Of a stretch of DNA of 23,550 nt, positions 5,947-22,093 are shown piece after piece. The stretch lies in the IMG/VR virus record IMGVR_UViG_3300049893_002526, one strand, 5' to 3'. Every line of letters begins with the position of its first letter. Position 1 is the first letter of the stretch. The notes beneath the pieces were generated by a model. It saw only the letters and a list, made by a program, of their open reading frames with translations, had not been told where the DNA came from and made no database searches. This stretch comes from an uncultured virus (IMG/VR IMGVR_UViG_3300049893_002526). Its lineage: Duplodnaviria; Heunggongvirae; Uroviricota; Caudoviricetes. The position numbers were made by a program, and so were the translations under genes.

Positions 5947-6177
5947 CTAAACCCACAACTCTGGCGGATCGTTATCCCGCTTCCTCGGCGCCTCCAATGG
6001 TAGCCAGGTGATGGTCTTGCCATCCGGACCTAAAGCCGAGATGTACAGCGTGTTGTTGTTCATCCAAAACTGTCCAAGGTCATGCGGCGTGGGACTCTCC
6101 GCGTGCTCTCTGACTCTCTGTGCAGTTTCATACTCAGCTATCAGGTCCTTGAAGATCTCCCCGGCGTCTGTCATCAT
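5947..6177 (-). CDS. Hypothetical protein (76 aa)
   Basis: ATGA overlap with the VWA gene stop codon. Confidence 0.7.
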   Translation of the reverse strand: MMTDAGEIFKDLIAEYETAQRVREHAESPTPHDLGQFWMNNNTLYISALGPDGKTITWLPLEAPRKRDNDPPELWV

Positions 6178-7721
6178 CGGATAGCTTTTTGAATAGCATC
6201 GACGACATTATTATCGTCCGAGGTATCTACGGTGTAGCTCTCGTCACTAAATGTCGCAACCACAGGGGGGAGATGCTTGGCTATGCAGAACGTCGTCCAC
6301 TGAGTTCCTGTAGATTCTTTGAACGCATTCAAGCGCTTGATGAACGCGTCGCTTACGGCTGATTCGCCGTCAGTGATCATCAGGACATCGCTGTTCTTAG
6401 TCAGCTCATCATTCTTCAGCGCGTGGTCGATCACGCTGTTGAAGCTCGTGCCTCCCCGCAGGAACCAGTCGCCCACAAAGTCAAGCAGTTTTGATGCGCT
6501 GGTTTTGTCCGGTTCGATCGTGACACTGTTCTGAATGAAGGTGTCAAACAGATTGATTTGAATCTTGCGGCGCTGCTTGAGGGCCTCTTCAGCGATGACG
6601 AAAGCAATCGCTTTAGACCAGATTTCGCTGTTGCCTGTCATTGACCCGGATACGTCGATGTACATCACGATCGGACCTTTGCCGAGATCTTTACGGTTGG
6701 CGGTGTAGTCTTTGGTAAGTAGTGTACGTTCAGAGTATTTGAGAGCAAATAATGCGCGGCCTTGCGGCGTAGCCGCTAGTGCAATCTCGCTCGGGAATGC
6801 CTGCGTTACGTTGTTGTCGAACTTAGCGCCGGTGATGTTCTCGTAGTTGCTCTTGGCTTTGCGGGCACGTTTGCGCTCAGCCCAGATCCGCCTGAGGGAT
6901 CCCAGCCGCGTGGCGATCTTCCGCAATGTCTGGTTACGGTTCAGTCGCTTGGCCAGAGCCTTCTTCTCTGCCAGTGTGCCTGACGATGCGCCCTGCCCTG
7001 CTGTATCTCCGAACATATTGTTCATCTGTTCCTGCAGCTCGTCGTTAGCTTTGTTCACGCTGTCGACGATCTTGCTGGCTTCAGCTCCTACCTGTTCTTT
7101 GGCATCCTGAATCGCATCATTGATCTTGTTAACAAGTTCCTTGGCCTGCTGTCGGATCTGTGCAGCTTTCTCGGTGTTTCCCTTGGCTGATTCCTTTTGG
7201 AATTGATCTCGTAGGTCCTGGAGCTCCTGTCCGCTCTTCGTCAGTAGCGCCACGTCGAACGTTTGCTCGGCGATAGCCTGCTCGATCGTTTCTGCGAGCT
7301 CGTTCAGCAGCATCACGGCGTTGTTACCTGATGCGAACTGATCGCCCACGCAGCGGTGGAGCAGCAGCGGCCAGCCTGCGGCGTTCGTCAGCTCATCCAT
7401 GATCGCGAACCAGATACCGTTCTCCGGCCTGTAGTTCTCGGGGAGTTTTGCTGGCAGCCCGTCGCATACCGAACGAAAGTAATCTTCAACGTCTTGTTCG
7501 CTGACAAGCCATTTGACTTGATCTTCGTTGTAGAGACGCTCGAAGATCTCTTTACCGAAGCGGCTGAGCTGAACAATTTCGTAGTTGTTGATCAGGTAGT
7601 TAACGCTGGGCTTTTGCTCGCGTACGAAGTCGTCCCACAGGAAATCAGCCAGTGCGCTGCAATAAAGGGTGAGTGGTTGGTTCTCAATGAGGCGAAGAAA
7701 TTCGCGGCGTGTCTGTGTCAC
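6174..7721 (-). CDS. VWA-domain protein, ViaA-like
   Basis: MIDAS motif KGPIVMYIDVSGSM...GGTSF...LMITDGE, central coiled coil, coupled to the AAA+ gene. Confidence 0.9.
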   Translation of the reverse strand: MTQTRREFLRLIENQPLTLYCSALADFLWDDFVREQKPSVNYLINNYEIVQLSRFGKEIFERLYNEDQVKWLVSEQDVEDYFRSVCDGLPAKLPENYRPENGIWFAIMDELTNAAGWPLLLHRCVGDQFASGNNAVMLLNELAETIEQAIAEQTFDVALLTKSGQELQDLRDQFQKESAKGNTEKAAQIRQQAKELVNKINDAIQDAKEQVGAEASKIVDSVNKANDELQEQMNNMFGDTAGQGASSGTLAEKKALAKRLNRNQTLRKIATRLGSLRRIWAERKRARKAKSNYENITGAKFDNNVTQAFPSEIALAATPQGRALFALKYSERTLLTKDYTANRKDLGKGPIVMYIDVSGSMTGNSEIWSKAIAFVIAEEALKQRRKIQINLFDTFIQNSVTIEPDKTSASKLLDFVGDWFLRGGTSFNSVIDHALKNDELTKNSDVLMITDGESAVSDAFIKRLNAFKESTGTQWTTFCIAKHLPPVVATFSDESYTVDTSDDNNVVDAIQKAIR

Positions 7722-8905
7722 TGTGCAATCTCCGAGATTTCGCGGGCGATAGAGTCTTGATTGTTCTGAAGCTGTTGAGTCAGTTTAACCCCACTCATGC
7801 GCTCGGATGCGCTCATCTTGATACGGTCGCTTGTTAGTAGCTCATCTACTTTGCTTTTGATTGTGTTGATGTCCTTGTGATACTTACGTAGCATCGCTAC
7901 ATACTCGTTTAATCCTTCCAAATTATTTGCACGGCTGCGGTGCACAGTGGATTGGAACTCAGCCATTACGCTGGCGCCTGCTCGTTTTGCATCGGCAAAC
8001 AGTTTTGCTGCCGTGGGAATCTCCTGCTCCAGCACCTCGCAAATAACCTGCTGATCGTCTGCGTTGGTGTAAACGATGTGCACGATGCTGTTGTGCATGT
8101 GTTCTGGGTGCAGAGTGTCGTCGCCCTGCACGACTGCCCAGGCGCGGAGGAATTTAAGGATCTGTACGCGACGACGGTCGCTGATCAAAACACCCCGCTG
8201 AGCCAACAGTTCCCACACACTGTTGAACTTATCTAAGAACTCGCCGGAGATTTTTACCTTCGCTGCTTCGTCTTGAAGAGCGCTCAGATCCTTCAGTGTG
8301 ATGTGCTCACCTACCTCCGGACGCTGCTCGATACCCAGAGCCCACTGATCCAGGATGCGCCTTGAGGTCGGTTTCTTGAGCGTGTGCACCGTCGGGCGGA
8401 ACAGGAAGCGGTCACTGAACGCCTGGAGTGATTCCTCTTCGGGCCAGCTGTTCGTGGCGGCGACGATGCTTTGCAGAGGAGTGATGATAGTTGTTTTGCC
8501 GTTGTTGAATGTCCGTTCGTTCAACAGGGTGAGCAGAGAGTTGAGGATGGCCGAGGAGCCACGGAACAGCTCATCGAGAAAGCCGACGTGTGCCGAAGGG
8601 AGATACCCGTCGACGTCGCGCTGATACTCATCCTGCAGCAGCTTAGTTACGGCTACAGGACCGAAAACTTCCGATGGATCGGTGGTCGGTGTCAGTAAAT
8701 AACCGAAGTAATTAACGCCGGTAATACCCTTACAGATGTTCCGAACAAGATCGGATTTACCTGTGCCAGGGGCACCCAACAGGAAGGCGTTTTGCTTAGC
8801 CAGGAGGCAGCTAAGCAGCCCGTCGATAACGTCAGTTCGTTCGAGCGTGGCAGCATTCAGAGCGCTACGAAAGTTTTGAAGCTTGGCAAAAAGAGTGTTG
8901 TTCAT
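7718..8905 (-). CDS. MoxR-family AAA+ ATPase, RavA-like
   Basis: Walker A GAPGTGKS, Walker B FLDELFRGSSAILNSLLTLLNER, AATN, FSDRF, ISDRR. Confidence 0.92.
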   Translation of the reverse strand: MNNTLFAKLQNFRSALNAATLERTDVIDGLLSCLLAKQNAFLLGAPGTGKSDLVRNICKGITGVNYFGYLLTPTTDPSEVFGPVAVTKLLQDEYQRDVDGYLPSAHVGFLDELFRGSSAILNSLLTLLNERTFNNGKTTIITPLQSIVAATNSWPEEESLQAFSDRFLFRPTVHTLKKPTSRRILDQWALGIEQRPEVGEHITLKDLSALQDEAAKVKISGEFLDKFNSVWELLAQRGVLISDRRRVQILKFLRAWAVVQGDDTLHPEHMHNSIVHIVYTNADDQQVICEVLEQEIPTAAKLFADAKRAGASVMAEFQSTVHRSRANNLEGLNEYVAMLRKYHKDINTIKSKVDELLTSDRIKMSASERMSGVKLTQQLQNNQDSIAREISEIAQ

Positions 8906-9102
8906 TTGATTGGTTTGGGGAATTGAACCTGGATAGGGCAGATGCTTAAGTCTTTAGCAAGTCGAGAGAAGGCGCGGCGAACACGCTCTGCCGCTGCGTC
9001 TAGATCTACGAATGAGATTGCTTGGAGGGGATCTGTTGTGAAGAAACCATCAGCCGTTAGATAACCCTGTGCTGTTTTGATTACGTAGAGAGTGCGAGTC
9101 AT
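8902..9102 (-). CDS. Hypothetical protein (66 aa)
   Basis: Overlapping start/stop codons with both neighbours. Confidence 0.7.
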   Translation of the reverse strand: MTRTLYVIKTAQGYLTADGFFTTDPLQAISFVDLDAAAERVRRAFSRLAKDLSICPIQVQFPKPIK

Positions 9103-10298
9103 TAGAAGTCACAGACGATCGATTCAGGATTTGGTTGATTGATGTCGGTAATAAGCTCGTCGAGCTTCTCGTTAGCTGCTGAGATAAGTTCCTTACGTCG
9201 TTCAATGAGGCGACGAAGATTCTTAGCTCGCTGTTCGTAGACGTCGATTTCTACGTTTGCTTCGGAGACAAGGAGATTTAAGTGCGAGCTGTTTTCTGCT
9301 CCCTTGATGCGCTCACAAAGTGTTTTGTACTTAGAAGACAACGCCAGGGATTGTTTGAGCTTCTCCAGCCCTTTGGATTCATCTCTGCTGTTGCAGATAG
9401 ATTCGAGCTCCTCCCGAATAGCTGTTTGAATGACTTGAAACTCCTGCTGCGCCTGTCGGTACGTTGACTTATCCGGCGAAGTAAGAAGCTTCCCGCATTC
9501 CAGCAACCGCGTGGCCAACACCGAAAGCTGATCGAATCCGGGAACGGAGTCGCTGATGAGCTTGAGTTTGTTAGCTGTGATCTCCCAGCTACCACGTTTC
9601 TTATCGGAACCCGTTTGTTGTTTTCCTATCTTGGTGATGGTGCGGGCATCTAGATCGTCAAGAAGCTCAGCACTAATAGTCAGTGCTCTGTCGGCTGCAG
9701 AAGCCTTTGCCGCCTCAAGAACCTGAGCTGTGTTGATGTTGTTCTCGTATGCGAGCAACGATTTAATGTCGCCGGTAACTGGTTCGTCCGCCACCTCCAG
9801 CATTACTGGAAGAGGACCGACGACAGATACGCGAATCGGAGCGTGGTAAGCCGCCTTCGTAGGGAATACTTTCATGTATGCCTGGAAGGCAAGATCGTAT
9901 TCCTGTTCATCTTCGAACAGAGGACGCAAGATGTTCTCCGCCGTTTCCTGCCACGCTGCGTATTCTTGATCCCAGAGATCACGCAGTTCTTCGTTTGCTT
10001 TCTCGGCGGAGTACTTGATGTCCTTGATGTACTCGTGTGCTTTGTAAAAGTAGGCTTCGGTTACAAAATGTGAGTCCCCGAAGTGAATCGTGCACTCGTC
10101 GTACAGCTCACGTTGTAATGCTCGAAGTTCGTCCAATTTGCTTTTGAGGGCATTGGACAGCGAAGGGCGGATCGAAACAGTGTTCTTCTCCCGCAGGGTC
10201 TTGATTGTTTGATCAGGCAGCTTTAAGTCATCGAACGCAATCTGTACGCTCTGACGAACAGTGCCGGAAATGGAACAGGCGAGAAAATAGTGATTCAT
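9102..10298 (-). CDS. Helical/coiled-coil protein (398 aa), possibly DUF3150-like
   Basis: Long ORF. The family guess rests on size, helical character and position upstream of an AAA+/VWA pair. Confidence 0.6.
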   Translation of the reverse strand: MNHYFLACSISGTVRQSVQIAFDDLKLPDQTIKTLREKNTVSIRPSLSNALKSKLDELRALQRELYDECTIHFGDSHFVTEAYFYKAHEYIKDIKYSAEKANEELRDLWDQEYAAWQETAENILRPLFEDEQEYDLAFQAYMKVFPTKAAYHAPIRVSVVGPLPVMLEVADEPVTGDIKSLLAYENNINTAQVLEAAKASAADRALTISAELLDDLDARTITKIGKQQTGSDKKRGSWEITANKLKLISDSVPGFDQLSVLATRLLECGKLLTSPDKSTYRQAQQEFQVIQTAIREELESICNSRDESKGLEKLKQSLALSSKYKTLCERIKGAENSSHLNLLVSEANVEIDVYEQRAKNLRRLIERRKELISAANEKLDELITDINQPNPESIVCDF

Positions 10299-11645: not shown

Positions 11646-11718
11646 TAGGGGCCATGGGGATCGAACCCATCTTCGGCGTGTTATGAGCACGCTGCAGTCA
11701 CCAGATTGCTAGACCCCC
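11646..11718 (-). tRNA. tRNA with CAT anticodon (elongator Met or lysidine-modified Ile2), no encoded CCA
   Basis: Acceptor GGGGGTC/GGCCCCT with discriminator A; D arm GCA..TGC; anticodon arm GCGTG-CTCATAA-CACGC; T arm ATGGG-TTCGATC-CCCAT; 73 nt. Confidence 0.92.
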
Positions 11719-15570: not shown

Positions 15571-15903
15571 TCATTTGATTCCTGTGATCTCCTTGGCAAT
15601 GGAGTCTACAAAGGTCCACACCATATGATTAACCATGCCGCGCACACTTGTGCTATGCTTGGCAAACTTATCTAGCCAAGTGTCGCCATACTTATCGTAG
15701 AAAAAGTCTTCAACCTCATCCTCAAACTGCAGGAAGAAGTCCCACGTCTCGTGATAATACGCCAGCTTATTCGGTGCCATTCGTGCACAACCACGAAGTG
15801 CAATGTCCTGCAAGTCTTCGTAGGTAAACAGGCCAGACTCTTCGCCTGACAAATACTCAACAGCGCGTGGCGCAATGATCTCAGTGTTGCGGGTCAAAGT
15901 CAT
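15571..15903 (-). CDS. Acidic/aromatic phage protein (110 aa; DI...GC...LAYYHET..FF pattern)
   Basis: ORF track call. ATG 15903 is preferred because GTGAATGTT belongs to the repeated leader motif. Confidence 0.75.
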   Translation of the reverse strand: MTLTRNTEIIAPRAVEYLSGEESGLFTYEDLQDIALRGCARMAPNKLAYYHETWDFFLQFEDEVEDFFYDKYGDTWLDKFAKHSTSVRGMVNHMVWTFVDSIAKEITGIK

Positions 15904-16008
15904 AACATTCACACGCTACATGGCGTGCAGCTAACACAATGAGGGAGAGTCCCTCATGTAACTAAGCCGAACTGATTAACAGCTCGGCGATAGCTACAGG
16001 AGAGAATC
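15901..16008 (-). ncRNA. Structured leader RNA motif, copy A
   Basis: GATTCTCTCC-[hairpin]-TGAGGGA-loop-TCCCTC-..TGTTAGCTG-[hairpin]-TGAATGTTATG, shared with 16946-17031; G-U pairs favour the minus strand. Confidence 0.75.
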
Positions 16009-16204
16009 AACGATCAACGTAGACAGCTTCTCGCTGTTTCCAGTAACCCCAAGTCACATAATCATCAAGTTTGCCGTTTAACAATGGACGCCAATCTGCA
16101 GTCTTAGAGGAACGTTTGCGCCCCCAATTACAACGTTCCGGTGTGAATCCTCCCCACCAGAATTCTTCACCGACTCTTACATCGGCAAAACTTACACGTT
16201 TCAT
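16007..16204 (-). CDS. Trp-rich hypothetical protein (65 aa)
   Basis: ORF track call. Confidence 0.7.
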   Translation of the reverse strand: MKRVSFADVRVGEEFWWGGFTPERCNWGRKRSSKTADWRPLLNGKLDDYVTWGYWKQREAVYVDR

Positions 16205-16206
16205 GA

Positions 16207-16413
16207 TCAGTCAGGACGGATAAGCTTGAACTCTTGAATGTCGTAGTAAGCAACAGTGTCTGCGCTGTAACTACGCAGTCGCTTAATCTCATTCTGTGCG
16301 CCACGGTCAGACTTGAACCATTGGTGATTCCAACGGCCGCGAGTCTTAACAGCCACACAGTGTGTAGCGTTCTTCTCTACTTTGCGCCCCGTGGGAAGAG
16401 TAAACGTGTTCAT
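16207..16413 (-). CDS. Hypothetical protein (68 aa)
   Basis: ORF track call. Confidence 0.7.
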   Translation of the reverse strand: MNTFTLPTGRKVEKNATHCVAVKTRGRWNHQWFKSDRGAQNEIKRLRSYSADTVAYYDIQEFKLIRPD

Positions 16414-16441
16414 GGTTAGATTGCGTGTCGGTCAGTTAGTT

Positions 16442-16606
16442 TCAAACAGCCCAGTTAGGACGTGCTACACGAGAGACGTAGAAGTAAGCTCTACCGTGTT
16501 CGCCGAACTGATACTCTTTGCACATACGATCCGCCTCAGAACGTGAGTCAAACTCATCAACTGTTTCGTGATAACGACCAGCCTGGCGGTTGACGTAGTA
16601 AGTCAT
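16442..16606 (-). CDS. Hypothetical protein (54 aa, MTYYVNRQAGRYHETVDEF...), paralog of 13019-13186
   Basis: Manually translated. Confidence 0.75.
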   Translation of the reverse strand: MTYYVNRQAGRYHETVDEFDSRSEADRMCKEYQFGEHGRAYFYVSRVARPNWAV

Positions 16607-16636
16607 AACTAGATTGCGATGGGTTAGTTAAAGAAC

Positions 16637-16948
16637 TCAGGAGCAATAGCGGCCGAGGATAACGTCGCCGTCGTCGCACAACTTGATAAGAACTCCACTG
16701 AAGTAAGAGTCAGCAGCTACACCGTGCCAATCGCACATTGGGCTATCAGGTGAAGCGTTGACTCGCATGAAGTCGGACAAAGCGTAAGTGAAACCTTTGT
16801 AAGTTACAAAGGACTCATCTTCAAACTCAGTGTCAGTTAGGTAGTCAAACTGCTTGCGGATCTTGGCAGCTTGCTTGTCACCTACAAAGAGTTCAAGTGT
16901 CAGCCCTGACATAGGCTGACGGGGCTGATTGTTGGTCGTGATGTTCAT
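16637..16948 (-). CDS. Hypothetical protein (103 aa), first gene of the small-gene array
   Basis: ORF track call; ATG 16948 preferred. Confidence 0.75.
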   Translation of the reverse strand: MNITTNNQPRQPMSGLTLELFVGDKQAAKIRKQFDYLTDTEFEDESFVTYKGFTYALSDFMRVNASPDSPMCDWHGVAADSYFSGVLIKLCDDGDVILGRYCS

Positions 16949-17031
16949 AACATTCACCAGCGATCGAGCTGGCAGCTAACAACAAAGAGGGAAGAATCCC
17001 TCACCGAACCGCGTGGCTCGGGGAGAGAATC
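16946..17031 (-). ncRNA. Structured leader RNA motif, copy B
   Basis: Same conserved linkers as 15901-16008 with different but still paired stems. Confidence 0.75.
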
Positions 17032-17790
17032 TAGTCTGTGATCAAGAATGATCCTATCGGATCAAACTTAATACTTAACCTGGACAAAGCTAGTAGTTAA
17101 CAGGCTCCGCCCTAATACAGTTAGGAACTGTTGCTCCAAACTAAAATAGGCGCATTGTGTTAGTTACAGAGTACAGATTGCCACCTATTGCACGGATTGA
17201 ACCGCCATCGCCGGGATACGACCGGGTGAGGTTCGCTCACAACTCTGTCCAGCGTACCTGCATCAAAGACAGTTACGCTGGACAAAGCCTGCAGGCGGAC
17301 AAGTTGTACTCTGTAACTAGCACTTGCCACGGTGACGAGTACCGTTGCGTCGCTAGTTGTAGGGCACGACCCTACTGATCAGTTCTAGTTACGTTGCTGT
17401 TGTAGTTGTACTAGGGCTTCATAACTCGCTAGTGGGGGATCTCCTACCCTTACTCCCACGCTGTGACCTTAAAGGTCTGGCACTTAGTTCGAACCGTAGC
17501 CGGAGTCTGGTTAACTAAGCTGTGTCTTCCTAGCGTTCCCTTGCGGTACTAGCTGACAACTACAACAGCAACCTTAGTTGTCACTAACTGCGCACCTAGT
17601 TAAAGGTGCCAGCTGACAACGTACAGGCTGACAAGTTCGGCATCGTGCACACTTAACCGGTCGGGTTGCAACCGTAGTGTGCTCGGGGGATCGCTCGCGC
17701 CCCTAGTTCCATCTTGTGACGATGCCTGCTATGAAGAACAGTTAGCTATGCCTTAGGCTTTCCGTGCAAACTATCTCAGCACAGCTAACT

Positions 17791-17809
17791 TATTCAGTTG
17801 TCGAGGTTC
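17791..17809 (-). promoter_or_regulatory. boxA-like antitermination element (GAACCTCGACAACTGAATA)
   Basis: Close to the cyanobacterial rrn boxA region GAACCTTGA(A/C)AACTG. Confidence 0.6.
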
Positions 17810-17945
17810 TTTCACCTAGTTACCTACTACAACTCCCGCCGCTCACGTTCCGGCACACCATGCCTGCCCTTGCCTACACTTCGGGGATGTTCTCCCTACC
17901 ATCAGCGGCAGACGCGCGGGGCCAGTTCGGCCGTCGCGGGAATCG

Positions 17946-17963
17946 ATTCGGTTGTCTAGGTGC
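17946..17963 (-). promoter_or_regulatory. boxA-like element (GCACCTAGACAACCGAAT) preceded by a GNRA-capped boxB-like hairpin
   Basis: Second copy of ACCTnGACAACnGAAT. Upstream CTGG...GGC-GAGA-GCC...CCAG hairpin at about 17966-17997. Confidence 0.55.
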
Positions 17964-18003
17964 CCTGGCGGCGTGGCTCTCGCCCCGTTCCTCCAGTGAC
18001 CTA

Positions 18004-18033
18004 AAGGTAAGGGCCAGCGGTGCACTAGGTCAA
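18004..18033 (-). promoter_or_regulatory. Sigma70-like promoter at the head of the structured RNA
   Basis: TTGACC-18 bp-TACCTT, directly upstream of the boxB/boxA-like leader. Confidence 0.55.
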
Positions 18034-18444
18034 CCCCTTCCAGCCGGTTGTCACATTGGCACACAGAGCCCAGTCACCTAGCTAGCTAATGGAAGGCGCG
18101 CAGGCGCACGCGCTAGCACCACGCGCACCCATTGGTCAAGCGGGTTCACACTCTGAATTGTGTTTAGTTAAAGGGGGCACCCTCCCCCGCTCAGTGAAAA
18201 GAATAGAACAAGAGTTTGAGTTTGTAATACATAGCGATCGTTGATTGATTCGTTATACAAACTCAGCTCACCCGTACGCGCGCGCCTGCACGCAATGTGC
18301 CCCTTTTTTTTAAATGTACGCGTTTGACGTCGCCGCCGGCGAGAACCCTTTGTGAATCTTGCTGGAAAAACGGGGTCAAAAGGTTTGGTGTCAGCATACG
18401 GACAGGCCCTGGACAAAAAAAATTCGCCCGCGTGGGGCGATGAC

Positions 18445-19132: not shown

Positions 19133-22093
19133 GTGACTTCTTCGGGTTTTGAACGGCTGCCTGACCGTACAACAATCGAGCGCTTACCCGAACTGGCTCG
19201 TAAGCTGCGTACAACGTACAACGTTGATCAAGGTATTCTTAGAGATTTTTTATTTCAAAGCGCGTTAAATGAAGGCGAGCTTGATTACGAACTTTCGCAG
19301 ATATACCCTGACTTAGATGCAGACGAAGCGGCTCAAATGGCTTCTTCTGCCGACTTTCCTAACTACTTACCTTTTGAAGGCTTCGATATTGATCCGGACA
19401 ACGAGACGCTAAACGCTTATCGTCTTGCTGCGGAGAATCCTAAAGCTAGGGAATTCGTTGAACAGAACAACGATTTAGGTAGTTTGCTCCCCGGCGGCAG
19501 CGTGGAGACTGCCCGTAACGCGTATTTGCAAGCTGTTAACTCAGGCGCACTGACTCCTGCGGAGCGCGAGATTCTCCGCTATGCAGGCGAATCTAGATTT
19601 TTATCCGACGCAAACTACAACGCAGACTCTGGCGAAGCTTTAAATAATTTACTACAAAGCTATACTGATAGGTTTGATACAGACTACTCTGCTAATTTAG
19701 AAAATGTCGCTGATATTTTAGAACAAGTAGATGAAGTCATACGCCCTGTCGAAGCTGATTTAGGGTCTAGAAACGTATCTTTAAGGTACGCTGAGAGCGA
19801 TACTACACGTCGTGATCCGTACGCAACTCGGATCGACAACCAAACTGTCCAGCCTGGGTTGCCTTTTGGCGGAGATAATCAAGACATTCGTCAACGTCTT
19901 GAAGTCTTAAGCAGCACAACTCCGCAGACGCTGGAGGAGCTTCGCGCTCAGGTTAATGAGATTCGAGGGCTGCGGCAGGAAGCTGCCACGCAACGTACAG
20001 CAGAAACCTTCCCGATCGAAGGCTCTGTCTTGCTGCCTCAAGTACGAGAGGCCATAGTTGCCAATCCAAATACCAGCCCATCTCGTGCTGGGTATCTTTT
20101 AGGCAGAGCTGAAAACGAAGCAAGAAACCCCAATCGAAACTCTCTGTATCAACTGCAGCGTGATCTGAGTCAACAGGAACCTCAAGGACTTGGAGCGGCA
20201 GAGACGCTGCGGACAGTCAATATGAGTCCCGCAGAACTAAACCCGTGGTTTGACCCAGTTGCAGCCGGGGAGTATGTCCAGAATCCGTTGGTTGGACTTT
20301 CGCTTCAGCTTGCGGATACCAGAGATGCGGCGATCCAGGAAGCTGTAGCTAAACAAGCTGAGGAACTGAACAAGTTTGTTGAAAAGTATCCGGAGGTTGG
20401 TCCGTACCTCCAGGGTGCACTGCAAAACCCGACTCCGAAGATCGAACGAAACATCGAAAAACTCGCTCCCTACCTTGATTTAGAGCAGGAGATTTCTAAA
20501 CCTGAAGCACGTCAGAGTATTTACAATCGTGCGATGAAGGAGCTGGGCGTACAGCCTTCTTATCTGTCGCAGATTGAACTGGACTACACCAGCGGCGAGA
20601 CAAGCAAGCAGAAAGAAGCTGTTGATCGTCTGATTCAGATGGGTTACGGTCCCGAGTTGCAGGCTGGTTCAGCATCTGCAGTTTCCCGCCGTATGCCTGT
20701 TGTCGGCGGCGGTGGTTATGCAACGGGGCAGGAATTACGCGATGCCCTTTCTTCTATTCGTGAGCGTGCGGCTGAATTTGAAAAACTAGCCAAGATACCT
20801 GCGACTACTTCGCTAGGTCCTAGCTCCGGTCCCTTGGGAATTCGGAATCCGAACCTGAACAAAGTCCCCTCGCTTGCTTCGTTCTCTTACGACCCGGATA
20901 CAAATACAGCTCGCCCTGATCCTGCCGGTGACTACAGCATTCGAGTCAATACGAACACCGATCCGGTACGTATTCGGTTAGGTGAAGATTTAGGTGGAGC
21001 TTCCGAGGTGTCTAGGAACGTCCTTAAGTTTTTACAGGACAACCCTGTGACTCAGAGGTCGAGCGTTTCTTTTGAAACGAGCACTCCGACTTCCGGGTTC
21101 GACTACAGCGCTAAGGATATTCCGGCGCCTGTGTTCGAACAAATGAATAAGTTTATTACAGAGAACGTCCTGCGTAACATGCGCCCAGGGATGATCCTAG
21201 AGAACTCTCCACTGGGTTCGGCTGATCTGGCTCGGTTACGGGAAGATCAAGGCAAGTCTCTGAGTGAGAGTTCTATCCTGCGCCGCCAAGAGGAATTCCA
21301 AGGGCAACAACCCAATCGCCGTGGCGCAGCATATCGTTCTGTCGGGTTTGGTCCTCTGACTGCTGAGGGGAACCAAATGCTGTATATGAACAGCGAGGGC
21401 AACATTGTTCCTCTTCAAGCCACCCGTCCTGCAGCTTCGTTGGCGGGAGGGGTCGTTATCCAAGATCGCCCTCTGCGTGCCGAAGTACTACAGTCCCGTG
21501 AACCCTTAACGGCGAAAGCGTATTACTCTGTAGATCCTGTGTCTGCTGCCGCGCAGGGTGCGGGTGAATACGTTCGGGCTCTGCGGCGCACGCCTGCTGC
21601 ACTGTTGCCTGGTGCTGCAGATTTGATTCCTAGCCCTGAGGCTATTCAAACCGGGTACCGCGAAGGGCTCGGACCTATGGCTCAGCAGATGGGTCGGGAG
21701 TTTGTACAGAGTTTGCCCACGGCAGCAGCAGCTTCCTCTGTCCTGGCGTTACCTGCAGTAGCTCCTTTGGCACCTGGCATTGGTGCTGGTATGGTCGGCA
21801 CTGCCGGAGCTCGGGCATTGAACGAGGTGGTGCGCCAGGAAACCGGAGAGGGCATCGTGCCTAAGTTGCGCCAGGCTCTTGGCACCGCTCCTCGAACCGG
21901 CGTGGCTAGTCCCGCACGTACAGGTCCACAGCCGTTAACTGCGCAGATTCGCCCTCTTACGCAAGCACAACGAACCGAACAGCAACGTCAGCAAAATCGC
22001 TCTGAGGTTGAGCGTCGTCTGGATTTAGCTCGGGAACGGTTCAACCCACGCCGAGGTGAGTTTGGTTTGTCTGAGCTGTTATTTGGACGCTAG
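19133..22093 (+). CDS. Large hypothetical protein (986 aa), possibly virion-associated
   Basis: Long ORF; acidic N-terminus, Ala/Pro/Gly-rich hydrophobic C-terminal region; no family recognised with confidence. Confidence 0.85.
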   Translation: MTSSGFERLPDRTTIERLPELARKLRTTYNVDQGILRDFLFQSALNEGELDYELSQIYPDLDADEAAQMASSADFPNYLPFEGFDIDPDNETLNAYRLAAENPKAREFVEQNNDLGSLLPGGSVETARNAYLQAVNSGALTPAEREILRYAGESRFLSDANYNADSGEALNNLLQSYTDRFDTDYSANLENVADILEQVDEVIRPVEADLGSRNVSLRYAESDTTRRDPYATRIDNQTVQPGLPFGGDNQDIRQRLEVLSSTTPQTLEELRAQVNEIRGLRQEAATQRTAETFPIEGSVLLPQVREAIVANPNTSPSRAGYLLGRAENEARNPNRNSLYQLQRDLSQQEPQGLGAAETLRTVNMSPAELNPWFDPVAAGEYVQNPLVGLSLQLADTRDAAIQEAVAKQAEELNKFVEKYPEVGPYLQGALQNPTPKIERNIEKLAPYLDLEQEISKPEARQSIYNRAMKELGVQPSYLSQIELDYTSGETSKQKEAVDRLIQMGYGPELQAGSASAVSRRMPVVGGGGYATGQELRDALSSIRERAAEFEKLAKIPATTSLGPSSGPLGIRNPNLNKVPSLASFSYDPDTNTARPDPAGDYSIRVNTNTDPVRIRLGEDLGGASEVSRNVLKFLQDNPVTQRSSVSFETSTPTSGFDYSAKDIPAPVFEQMNKFITENVLRNMRPGMILENSPLGSADLARLREDQGKSLSESSILRRQEEFQGQQPNRRGAAYRSVGFGPLTAEGNQMLYMNSEGNIVPLQATRPAASLAGGVVIQDRPLRAEVLQSREPLTAKAYYSVDPVSAAAQGAGEYVRALRRTPAALLPGAADLIPSPEAIQTGYREGLGPMAQQMGREFVQSLPTAAAASSVLALPAVAPLAPGIGAGMVGTAGARALNEVVRQETGEGIVPKLRQALGTAPRTGVASPARTGPQPLTAQIRPLTQAQRTEQQRQQNRSEVERRLDLARERFNPRRGEFGLSELLFGR

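Follow-up and report, generated by a model that had tools for sequence, protein, structure and literature searches.

A recurrent RNA element with two mutually exclusive folds ahead of early genes in aquatic phages, and its possible role in RNase III processing

The minus strand of the window (the whole 23,550-nucleotide stretch analysed here) carries two copies of an RNA element that is real and uncatalogued, and of which we found 158 distinct copies in aquatic phage contigs. One of its strands can pair with either of two partners, and both of these mutually exclusive pairings are conserved. Judging from sequence comparison, the element is probably a host RNase III site like those of phage T7, set in a polycistronic early mRNA and able to refold after cleavage into a blunt 5' hairpin. 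Among the roles offered by a first-pass annotation of this DNA, that of a processing element thus gives the best reading.

Both copies are on the window's minus strand, the strand that encodes an extended series of small genes. They occupy 15901-16008 (copy A) and 16946-17031 (copy B), where the first-pass annotation had placed them, with the layout that it described and with each 3' end falling on an ATG. Their features are as follows.

16007..16009, minus strand: stop codon (UGA) closing the upstream 65-aa ORF (16007-16204) and coinciding in part with the start of copy A
16000..16008, minus strand: copy A arm A, the 5' strand of stem P1
15957..15998, minus strand: copy A variable hairpin P2 in a long form (8 + 9 bp), with the conserved G at 15994
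15947..15956, minus strand: copy A invariant U (15956) and arm B
15956/15955 and 15998/15997, minus strand: predicted RNase III cuts of copy A
15941..15946, minus strand: copy A strand C, which with arm B makes P3, the predicted 5'-terminal hairpin
15904..15935, minus strand: copy A clade-specific linker with hairpin P4 (15927-15912)
15571..15903, minus strand: gene 3' of copy A, 110 aa, DUF7222 (PF23864, E 1.7e-7)
17023..17031, minus strand: copy B arm A, the 5' strand of P1, with no upstream ORF ending here
17004..17021, minus strand: copy B variable hairpin P2, 7 bp, with the conserved G at 17017
16994..17003, minus strand: copy B invariant U (17003) and arm B
17003/17002 and 17021/17020, minus strand: predicted RNase III cuts of copy B
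16987..16992, minus strand: copy B strand C (P3), flagged as terminator-like together with the U-rich run that comes after it
16949..16980, minus strand: copy B clade-specific linker with hairpin P4 (16972-16957)
16637..16948, minus strand: gene 3' of copy B, 103 aa, phrog_1845 (function unassigned, E 1.3e-4)

The 3' linker pattern occurs twice in the window, against 0.01 occurrences expected by chance. Minus-strand folds are more stable than those of shuffled sequences (z = -5.7 for copy A and -4.0 for copy B), and the plus strand gives z = -4.1 and -2.1, respectively. A covariance model scan of the window returned no third copy, and a promoter scan lists no promoter at either copy. The gene content of the window resembles that of a cyanophage contig, with genes for DNA polymerase A, for MoxR/vWA, Kyano_Gp96, RlpA-like and DUF7222 proteins and for a tRNA-Met.

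Copy B stands in front of the first gene to follow some 1.2 kb of non-coding leader DNA, and this leader has features of its own. No convincing ORF was seen across 17040-18250 (about 1.2 kb), which includes long inverted repeats (17157-17180/17300-17323 and 17393-17409/17556-17572); the tile 17040-17279 has a fold z of -4.6, and the other leader tiles range from -2.4 to +0.9. Related contigs skip 17386-17586 or 17284-17637, which suggests that the leader contains modular hairpins. Just 5' of copy B, a run of GATC motifs (17035-17070) is kept in many clade relatives and possibly represents methylation or protein-binding sites. At 17650-17740 on the minus strand lies another conserved leader motif, made up of several hairpins, the last stem of which shows compensatory changes. 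It has no Rfam match and occurs in nine related loci and in Synechococcus phages S-CBP1 and DSL-LC07; the S-CBP1 copy (46351-46429) lies near promoter-like sequence at the genome end, and the motif could be an early-leader RNA, for example an antiterminator. A candidate sigma-70-type early promoter was picked out by eye at 18004-18033 on the minus strand (-35 at 18033-18028), under the threshold of the promoter scan. Elsewhere in the window, a tRNA-Met(CAU) gene (11646-11718, minus strand) lies inside the early/middle gene run, a MoxR AAA+ ATPase and vWA gene pair (6174-10298, minus strand) is preceded by a 398-aa protein without a family match, and a 986-aa ORF on the plus strand (19133-22093) has no Pfam or PHROG match.

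Pattern searches revealed that the core of the family is the 5' half of the element, namely arm A (GAYUCUCUC), a C, the variable hairpin P2, a U, arm B (GAGGGAYUC) and strand C (CCCUC), with 0-4 nt between arm B and strand C and a variable linker leading to the ATG. A pattern built on the 3' half returned members in 15 of 46 viral loci, and one built on the 5' half returned 96 loci, nearly all of them family members. Two covariance models and further scans, followed by a descriptor run over all loci, yielded 188 hits; 158 were kept on fixed features that excluded strand C and the P2 G, and 30 were set aside as chance. These 158 copies are distinct sequences, not independent lineages. Building a covariance model and searching phage metagenomes, as the first-pass annotation had proposed, has brought to light a large covarying family. 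The layout that it gave holds for both window copies, while family-wide only the order A-P2-B-C is retained, since the UGUUAGCUG-hairpin-UGAAUGUUAUG part is found in 21/158 copies. P1 and P2 stack into one long stem broken by a C-U mismatch and often also by a C-C (103/158), so that the central break is a 1x1 or 2x2 pyrimidine loop. P2 and the loops vary freely, and the little that is conserved outside pairs consists of single pyrimidine mismatches. A Shine-Dalgarno-like word is present in just 52/142 copies. In GC-rich carriers (loci L176, L199, L243, L244 and others) strand C and the ATG are joined by a structure-free (ACC/CAC)n run that lacks a Shine-Dalgarno sequence. One copy (L133:3589-3631) has intact P1 and P2 and no strand C, which makes it a naturally occurring case for judging what P3 does.

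The strongest evidence for two folds comes from the joint variation of three strands. By the first five bases of arm B, the 158 copies sort into ten classes: GAGGG (100), GCUGG (23), GAAGG (11), GCAGG (8) and GCUGC (7), with GUGGG (3), GAGUG (3), GAUAC (1), GAUGC (1) and GAGAG (1) as the rarer ones. Arm A, arm B and strand C change together over these classes, which argues that both pairings, A:B and B:C, are under selection. Two-sided changes were observed at all eight variable pairs in 49 aligned copies, in which 93.9% of cells were paired versus 75% in shuffles and 31-60% in slid controls (the eight P1 pairs were fixed by the search pattern in this set). P3 has five of five Watson-Crick pairs in 136/158 copies and in 52/58 outside the main class, and strand C tails swapped in from another class almost never fit arm B. 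We also ran a blind metagenome scan in which the relevant positions were left free, which gave at least 124 loci. Among the matches listed (102 distinct), both pairings were present in 34 of 42 with a folding P2, compared with one of seven with an intermediate and one of 53 with a non-folding P2. Single mismatches in P1 occur in 21/158 copies, mainly of the CCCAUC and GACAGC types; the CCCAUC/GCUGG class combines a U-C mismatch in P1 with a perfect P3 (11/158), and the same mismatch recurs in three of six GCUGG copies among the matches listed from the blind scan. P1 dominates the uncut RNA in 123/158 copies and P3 in 27/158, and different arm B classes stand side by side in 20 loci. The proposal that GAGGGA has two alternative, mutually exclusive partners is thus upheld, both pairings being present and conserved, and with it the suggestion of a covarying, cis-acting structured RNA. 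The G-U pairs that had been said to work only on the minus strand likewise recur in homologues on that strand, with the pair at column 18 being G-C in 94/158 copies and G-U in 57/158.

Hairpin P4 is an addition seen in close relatives of the window (21/158 copies). Its stems comprise CCAGC/GCUGG, CACGC/GCGUG, CUCAC/GUGAG and a fourth form; both versions that the first-pass annotation had cited as a stem changing with its pairing kept (CACGC/GCGUG and CCAGC/GCUGG) are therefore found among them. The UAGC/GUUA pairing that it had drawn over the start codon fared less evenly, being present in most P4 copies and broken (CAGC) in 5/21. In copy B the 3' strand of P4 overlaps a putative Shine-Dalgarno stretch, GGUGA (16958-16954), and by this overlap P4 probably damps or tunes translation of the next gene within the window's clade. 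P2 and P4 modules and downstream genes recombine among related phages, and this shuffling around the element suggests that it is probably also a homologous crossover point.

The observed distribution places the element in early regions of diverse phages. Of 48 records searched, chosen mostly for carrying a copy, 47 hold one to five copies, with the strong copies grouped on a single strand in a stretch of a few kb. The strand is always the coding one; the element follows directly on a stop codon or a non-coding leader, and its distance to the ATG, counted from the start of arm B, is mostly 35-55 nt. The downstream genes are unrelated small early genes with no shared pathway. A T7-type RNA polymerase gene was detected in 15/25 carriers tested, and in 15/15 of these the elements are upstream of it and co-oriented; eight of the ten carriers without a polymerase are 66-87 kb phages, as in the window's clade, which lacks a T7-type RNA polymerase. 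The family is common to T7-like phages and unrelated larger phages (70-87 kb).

The available evidence points to picocyanobacteria as hosts. One carrier's polymerase shares 63% identity with its counterpart in Prochlorococcus phage P-SCSP1, and the cultured Synechococcus phage S-CRES3, reached via a blastn match, carries a degenerate copy (31055-31108 of its record). A high-light-inducible gene, taken as a host marker, was found in 2/25 carriers, under the cut-off. When two core sequences were compared with cultured phages by blastn, all matches were short and at chance level, and no copy was found in S-CBP1, in Vibrio phage 1.070.O, in the first 4.5 kb of P-SCSP1h or in the first 7.2 kb of T7. 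The GAGGG-class pattern had six matches in 185,579 prokaryote genomes, none cyanobacterial and none with the family's tight P2. None of five near-complete carrier genomes (0/5) encodes an RNase III. Contigs from RNA runs (n = 5) had word shares of 0.07-0.11; one contig from run X1 stops, with adapter, inside arm A of copy B and another from run X3 spans it, both being assembled contigs, which cannot show ends and so count neither for nor against a cut.

Having established the folds, we assessed whether the long stem carries the marks of an RNase III substrate. The fourth P2 pair outward from the loop contains a G, on the outgoing strand, in 151/158 copies, many as G-U, with neighbouring pairs varying freely; this G stood at 107/111 before any search pattern fixed it. 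Its counterpart, the fourth P1 pair outward from the loop, contains a G, again on the outgoing strand, in 153/158 copies, many likewise as G-U, and has lost it in 5/158. Bacterial RNase III is described as acting as a homodimer, with recognition of a G at +3 and products bearing 2-nt 3' overhangs (PMC9291653); with +3 assumed to be counted from R0, the first base after the cut, the symmetric Gs would place the two cuts so that they flank the pyrimidine loop. At the third P2 pair, A-U or U-A is found in 132/158 copies, versus 20-61/158 at four other P2 pairs, a preference that matches the pb2 rule given for the proximal box of E. coli RNase III (G-C preferred at pb1, A-U/U-A at pb2; PMC1540722). 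We further scored the weak consensus published in PMC5141509 in all registers on each arm. It was best at shift 0 on each arm separately, with a sum of 16.1/32 versus at most 12.9 elsewhere, which falls to 12.1/28 when four positions fixed or filtered by the descriptor are removed. This register, the one that gives 2-nt 3' overhangs, was the best in about 105/158 copies, and the 30 chance hits showed no peak. T7 sites scored as a positive control reached 14, 14, 8, 13 and 11 of 16; the family's score is modest at about 8/16 per arm, roughly half of T7's. The window copies are not decisive for the register, copy A tying between shifts 0 and +4 and copy B scoring best at -1.

Substrates of the E. 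coli enzyme span close to two helical turns of double-stranded RNA at the cut; here the stem comprises 9-10 positions of P1, the loop and 6-9 contiguous bp of P2 (143/158), about 17-20 positions in total, copy A being longer. Other features depart from the rules described for this enzyme. E. coli RNase III is reported to need a helix of at least 11 bp between cut and loop on the side that specifies cleavage (PMC1540722), but a contiguous P2 of at least 11 bp occurs in only 12/158 copies and P2 is shorter in 146/158. C-G beside the cut and at pb2 inhibits the E. coli enzyme according to the same source (PMC1540722); on the P1 side, C-G is beside the cut in 158/158 copies (a position fixed by the family filter) and at pb2 in 107/158, and on the P2 side G-C or C-G is beside the cut (pb4) in 95/158. 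The loss of the P1-side G in 5/158 copies and the mismatched P1 of the CCCAUC/GCUGG class, in which P3 stays perfect, also speak against cleavage. Cyanobacterial RNase IIIs are described as often cutting E. coli substrates at shifted positions (PMC5829567), so rules drawn from E. coli may fail to carry over, be it for or against a cut. Given these departures, we liken the element to a T7 RNase III signal rather than class it among canonical E. coli-type substrates. Nor does the B. subtilis Mini-III motif apply, which has a paired ACC^U/AGGU centre (PMC4357697); in the family, the centre has either CC facing CU or a single C facing U.

From the folds, their conservation and their position, all of which are observed, we infer an enzyme, a cut, an order of events and a protective effect. 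Covariation supports both the long P1-loop-P2 stem and the alternative pairing of arm B with strand C in P3. RNase III would bind the long stem and cut around the pyrimidine loop, on the 3' arm (U/G) at least and possibly on the 5' arm. Strand C would then displace arm A and so release the downstream message, which would begin with the blunt hairpin P3 at its first base, shielding the 5'-monophosphate from RNase J and RNase E. Were only the 3' arm nicked, the upstream message would retain P2 as a protective 3' hairpin and strand C would then release the nicked duplex; internal loops can restrict RNase III to such a single nick, with a protective 3' hairpin left behind (PMC1540722). In 155/158 copies the first base of the predicted product is paired, versus 86/158 for a cut one base earlier; later product starts are also often paired, so pairing bounds only the 5' side of the cut. 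The partner of the U before the predicted cut is not conserved (A in 75/136). Together, the paired first base and the unconserved partner of the preceding U indicate that P3 starts at the predicted cut. The host machinery would be in place: genes for RNase III and RNase J are reported from all sequenced cyanobacteria (PMC10989914), the cyanobacterial RNase E is able to sense 5' monophosphates (PMC10939160), monophosphate ends are attacked in cyanobacteria by both RNase J and this RNase E (PMC10989914, PMC10939160), and 5' stem-loops protect mRNA (PMC7509114). There is also a small chance that the element works as a protein-gated, two-state switch, in which the three strands build the substrate, release the products and cap the 5' end, and a terminating ribosome flips uncut RNA into the nuclease-blind P3. 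If so, the early operon would be cut only where the upstream gene is untranslated, and translation load would be coupled to mRNA segmentation.

RNase III processing of T7 early mRNA is textbook knowledge, and the T7 sites (R0.3, R0.5, R1, R1.1 and R1.3) are the closest comparison. Like the family, they recur in the early region, both between genes and ahead of the first one, and an ATG follows after a few tens of bases (cut to ATG is 27-35 nt at 4/5 T7 sites). They share a long stem with an internal loop and a consensus peaking in the same register, and the predicted 3'-arm cut is U/GA as in R0.3, R0.5 and R1.1. They differ in that the T7 loop is asymmetric, whereas the family has a symmetric 1x1 or 2x2 pyrimidine loop, an upper hairpin usually 2-3 bp shorter with C-G beside the cut, and a conserved third strand that would give the blunt 5' hairpin; among T7 products only that of R1.1 folds a comparable hairpin, starting at base 2. 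No sequence match was found between the family and the first 7.2 kb of T7. The PeSL promoter/stem-loop cassettes of T4-type phages are likewise repeated regulatory units before small, shuffled early genes, but no promoter is predicted inside either window copy of the present element, in which conservation falls on an RNA duplex that can also fold another way. At the early RNase III sites of Bacillus phages SP82/SPO1, cleavage 5' of an early gene is generally understood to stabilise the downstream mRNA, as is predicted here. The stabiliser there is a ribosome-binding polypurine stretch, in contrast to the predicted strand-exchange hairpin of our family. Mutations in the ribosome-binding site shorten the half-life of SP82 mRNA (PMC7509114). 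The ompA leader of E. coli protects its mRNA by means of a hairpin at the very 5' end (PMC7509114), as P3 would; such stabilisers form on primary transcripts, whereas P3 would form only after the cut, from a strand that had built the substrate.

Other functions must be weighed against RNase III processing. A ribosome at the upstream stop might strip arm A off arm B so that P3 forms and the fate of the downstream message changes, through a hidden RNase III site or altered reinitiation. The upstream stop does overlap the foot of P1 in 100/158 copies (100/124 with an upstream ORF ending nearby), a G-to-A change there still leaves a stop (UAA) and is accompanied by a compensating change (four A-U pairs), and the fold energies are close, P3 winning in 27/158. 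However, gene packing explains the overlap, the stop-like triplet is kept in 43 copies in which it ends no ATG-started ORF of at least 35 codons (a few end GTG-started ORFs), many first-in-operon copies, including copy B, have no upstream ORF, and strand C shows no pairing to the initiation region (10/142 versus 11.9 in shuffles); we therefore think such coupling unlikely. The conserved symmetric helix positions and mismatches would also suit a double-stranded RNA-binding protein of host or phage that does not cut, either RNase III binding alone or a put-like RNA acting on RNA polymerase. G-C or C-G at the scissile bond keeps E. coli RNase III from cutting and not from binding, and P1 has such a pair in 158/158 copies. 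This account is quite improbable to us, as it leaves unexplained both the three-way conservation of P3 and its start exactly at the predicted cut, and the five near-complete phage genomes encode no RNase III. Copy B, with its terminator-like P3 and U-rich tail, suggests an attenuator in which P3 is an intrinsic terminator and P1 the antiterminator, and this fits the window's copies; at least five U in 8 nt follow in 39/100 GAGGG-class and 6/11 GAAGG-class copies. Across the family, though, a U tail is present in only 47/158 copies, and in two of the 47 copies that make up the remaining eight classes; P3 has low stability (median -7.5 kcal/mol), and a terminator scan of the region found 9 sites versus 8.3 in shuffles, no excess, all of which makes attenuation very doubtful.

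Phages are known to place ribozymes at gene junctions, a precedent that, together with two conserved exclusive folds, would suit a self-cleaving ribozyme or a ligand-sensing riboswitch. The chance of either is very slight: there is almost no conserved unpaired sequence to form a ligand pocket or catalytic core, and no Rfam riboswitch or ribozyme matched. The label 'riboswitch-like' in the first-pass annotation also sits poorly with the lack of an expression platform (U-tract in 47/158, anti-Shine-Dalgarno pairing at chance) and with downstream genes that are unrelated and share no pathway, and the element is unlikely to be a riboswitch. Finally, related phages differ in genes and in P2/P4 modules around the element, so that it could be a DNA-level cassette junction whose three-way changes arose by template switching at quasi-palindromes and not by selection on RNA. 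We regard this as extremely improbable, because G-U pairs are frequent and strand-specific, pyrimidine mismatches persist though template switching would perfect them, the classes coexisting in 20 loci lower the identity between copies, and the element keeps to the coding strand. We also tried and rejected strand C as an anti-Shine-Dalgarno sequence, on the 10/142 versus 11.9 count; a triple helix, by the reasoning that strand C is antiparallel to arm B and contains purines in several classes; and ribosome hopping between two GAYUC repeats (the Y matches in 90/111), given 21 mismatches and a stop before the first repeat.

The first-pass annotation recognised no known family, and Rfam 15 indeed gives no match on the element in the window, nor did Rfam scans of 16, 8 and 19 homologous loci. 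A literature search on cyanophage RNase III sites or such a motif found no description within the collection searched. A term search of PMC12873609 returned no relevant motif, and the searchable tables of PMC10690425 (8,495 phage candidate RNAs) gave no match; the alignments of the latter lay outside the search, so the motif may be among its unnamed candidates. Three-way covariation of two exclusive helices is rare, and constitutes direct evidence of a conserved RNA refolding step. Target lists for cyanobacterial RNase III are described as lacking (PMC5829567), and the specificity of this enzyme could be read from the 158 natural variants. If the element is indeed cut and capped as proposed, it would provide a portable part of 50 nt with which to split and stabilise polycistronic mRNAs in cyanobacteria.
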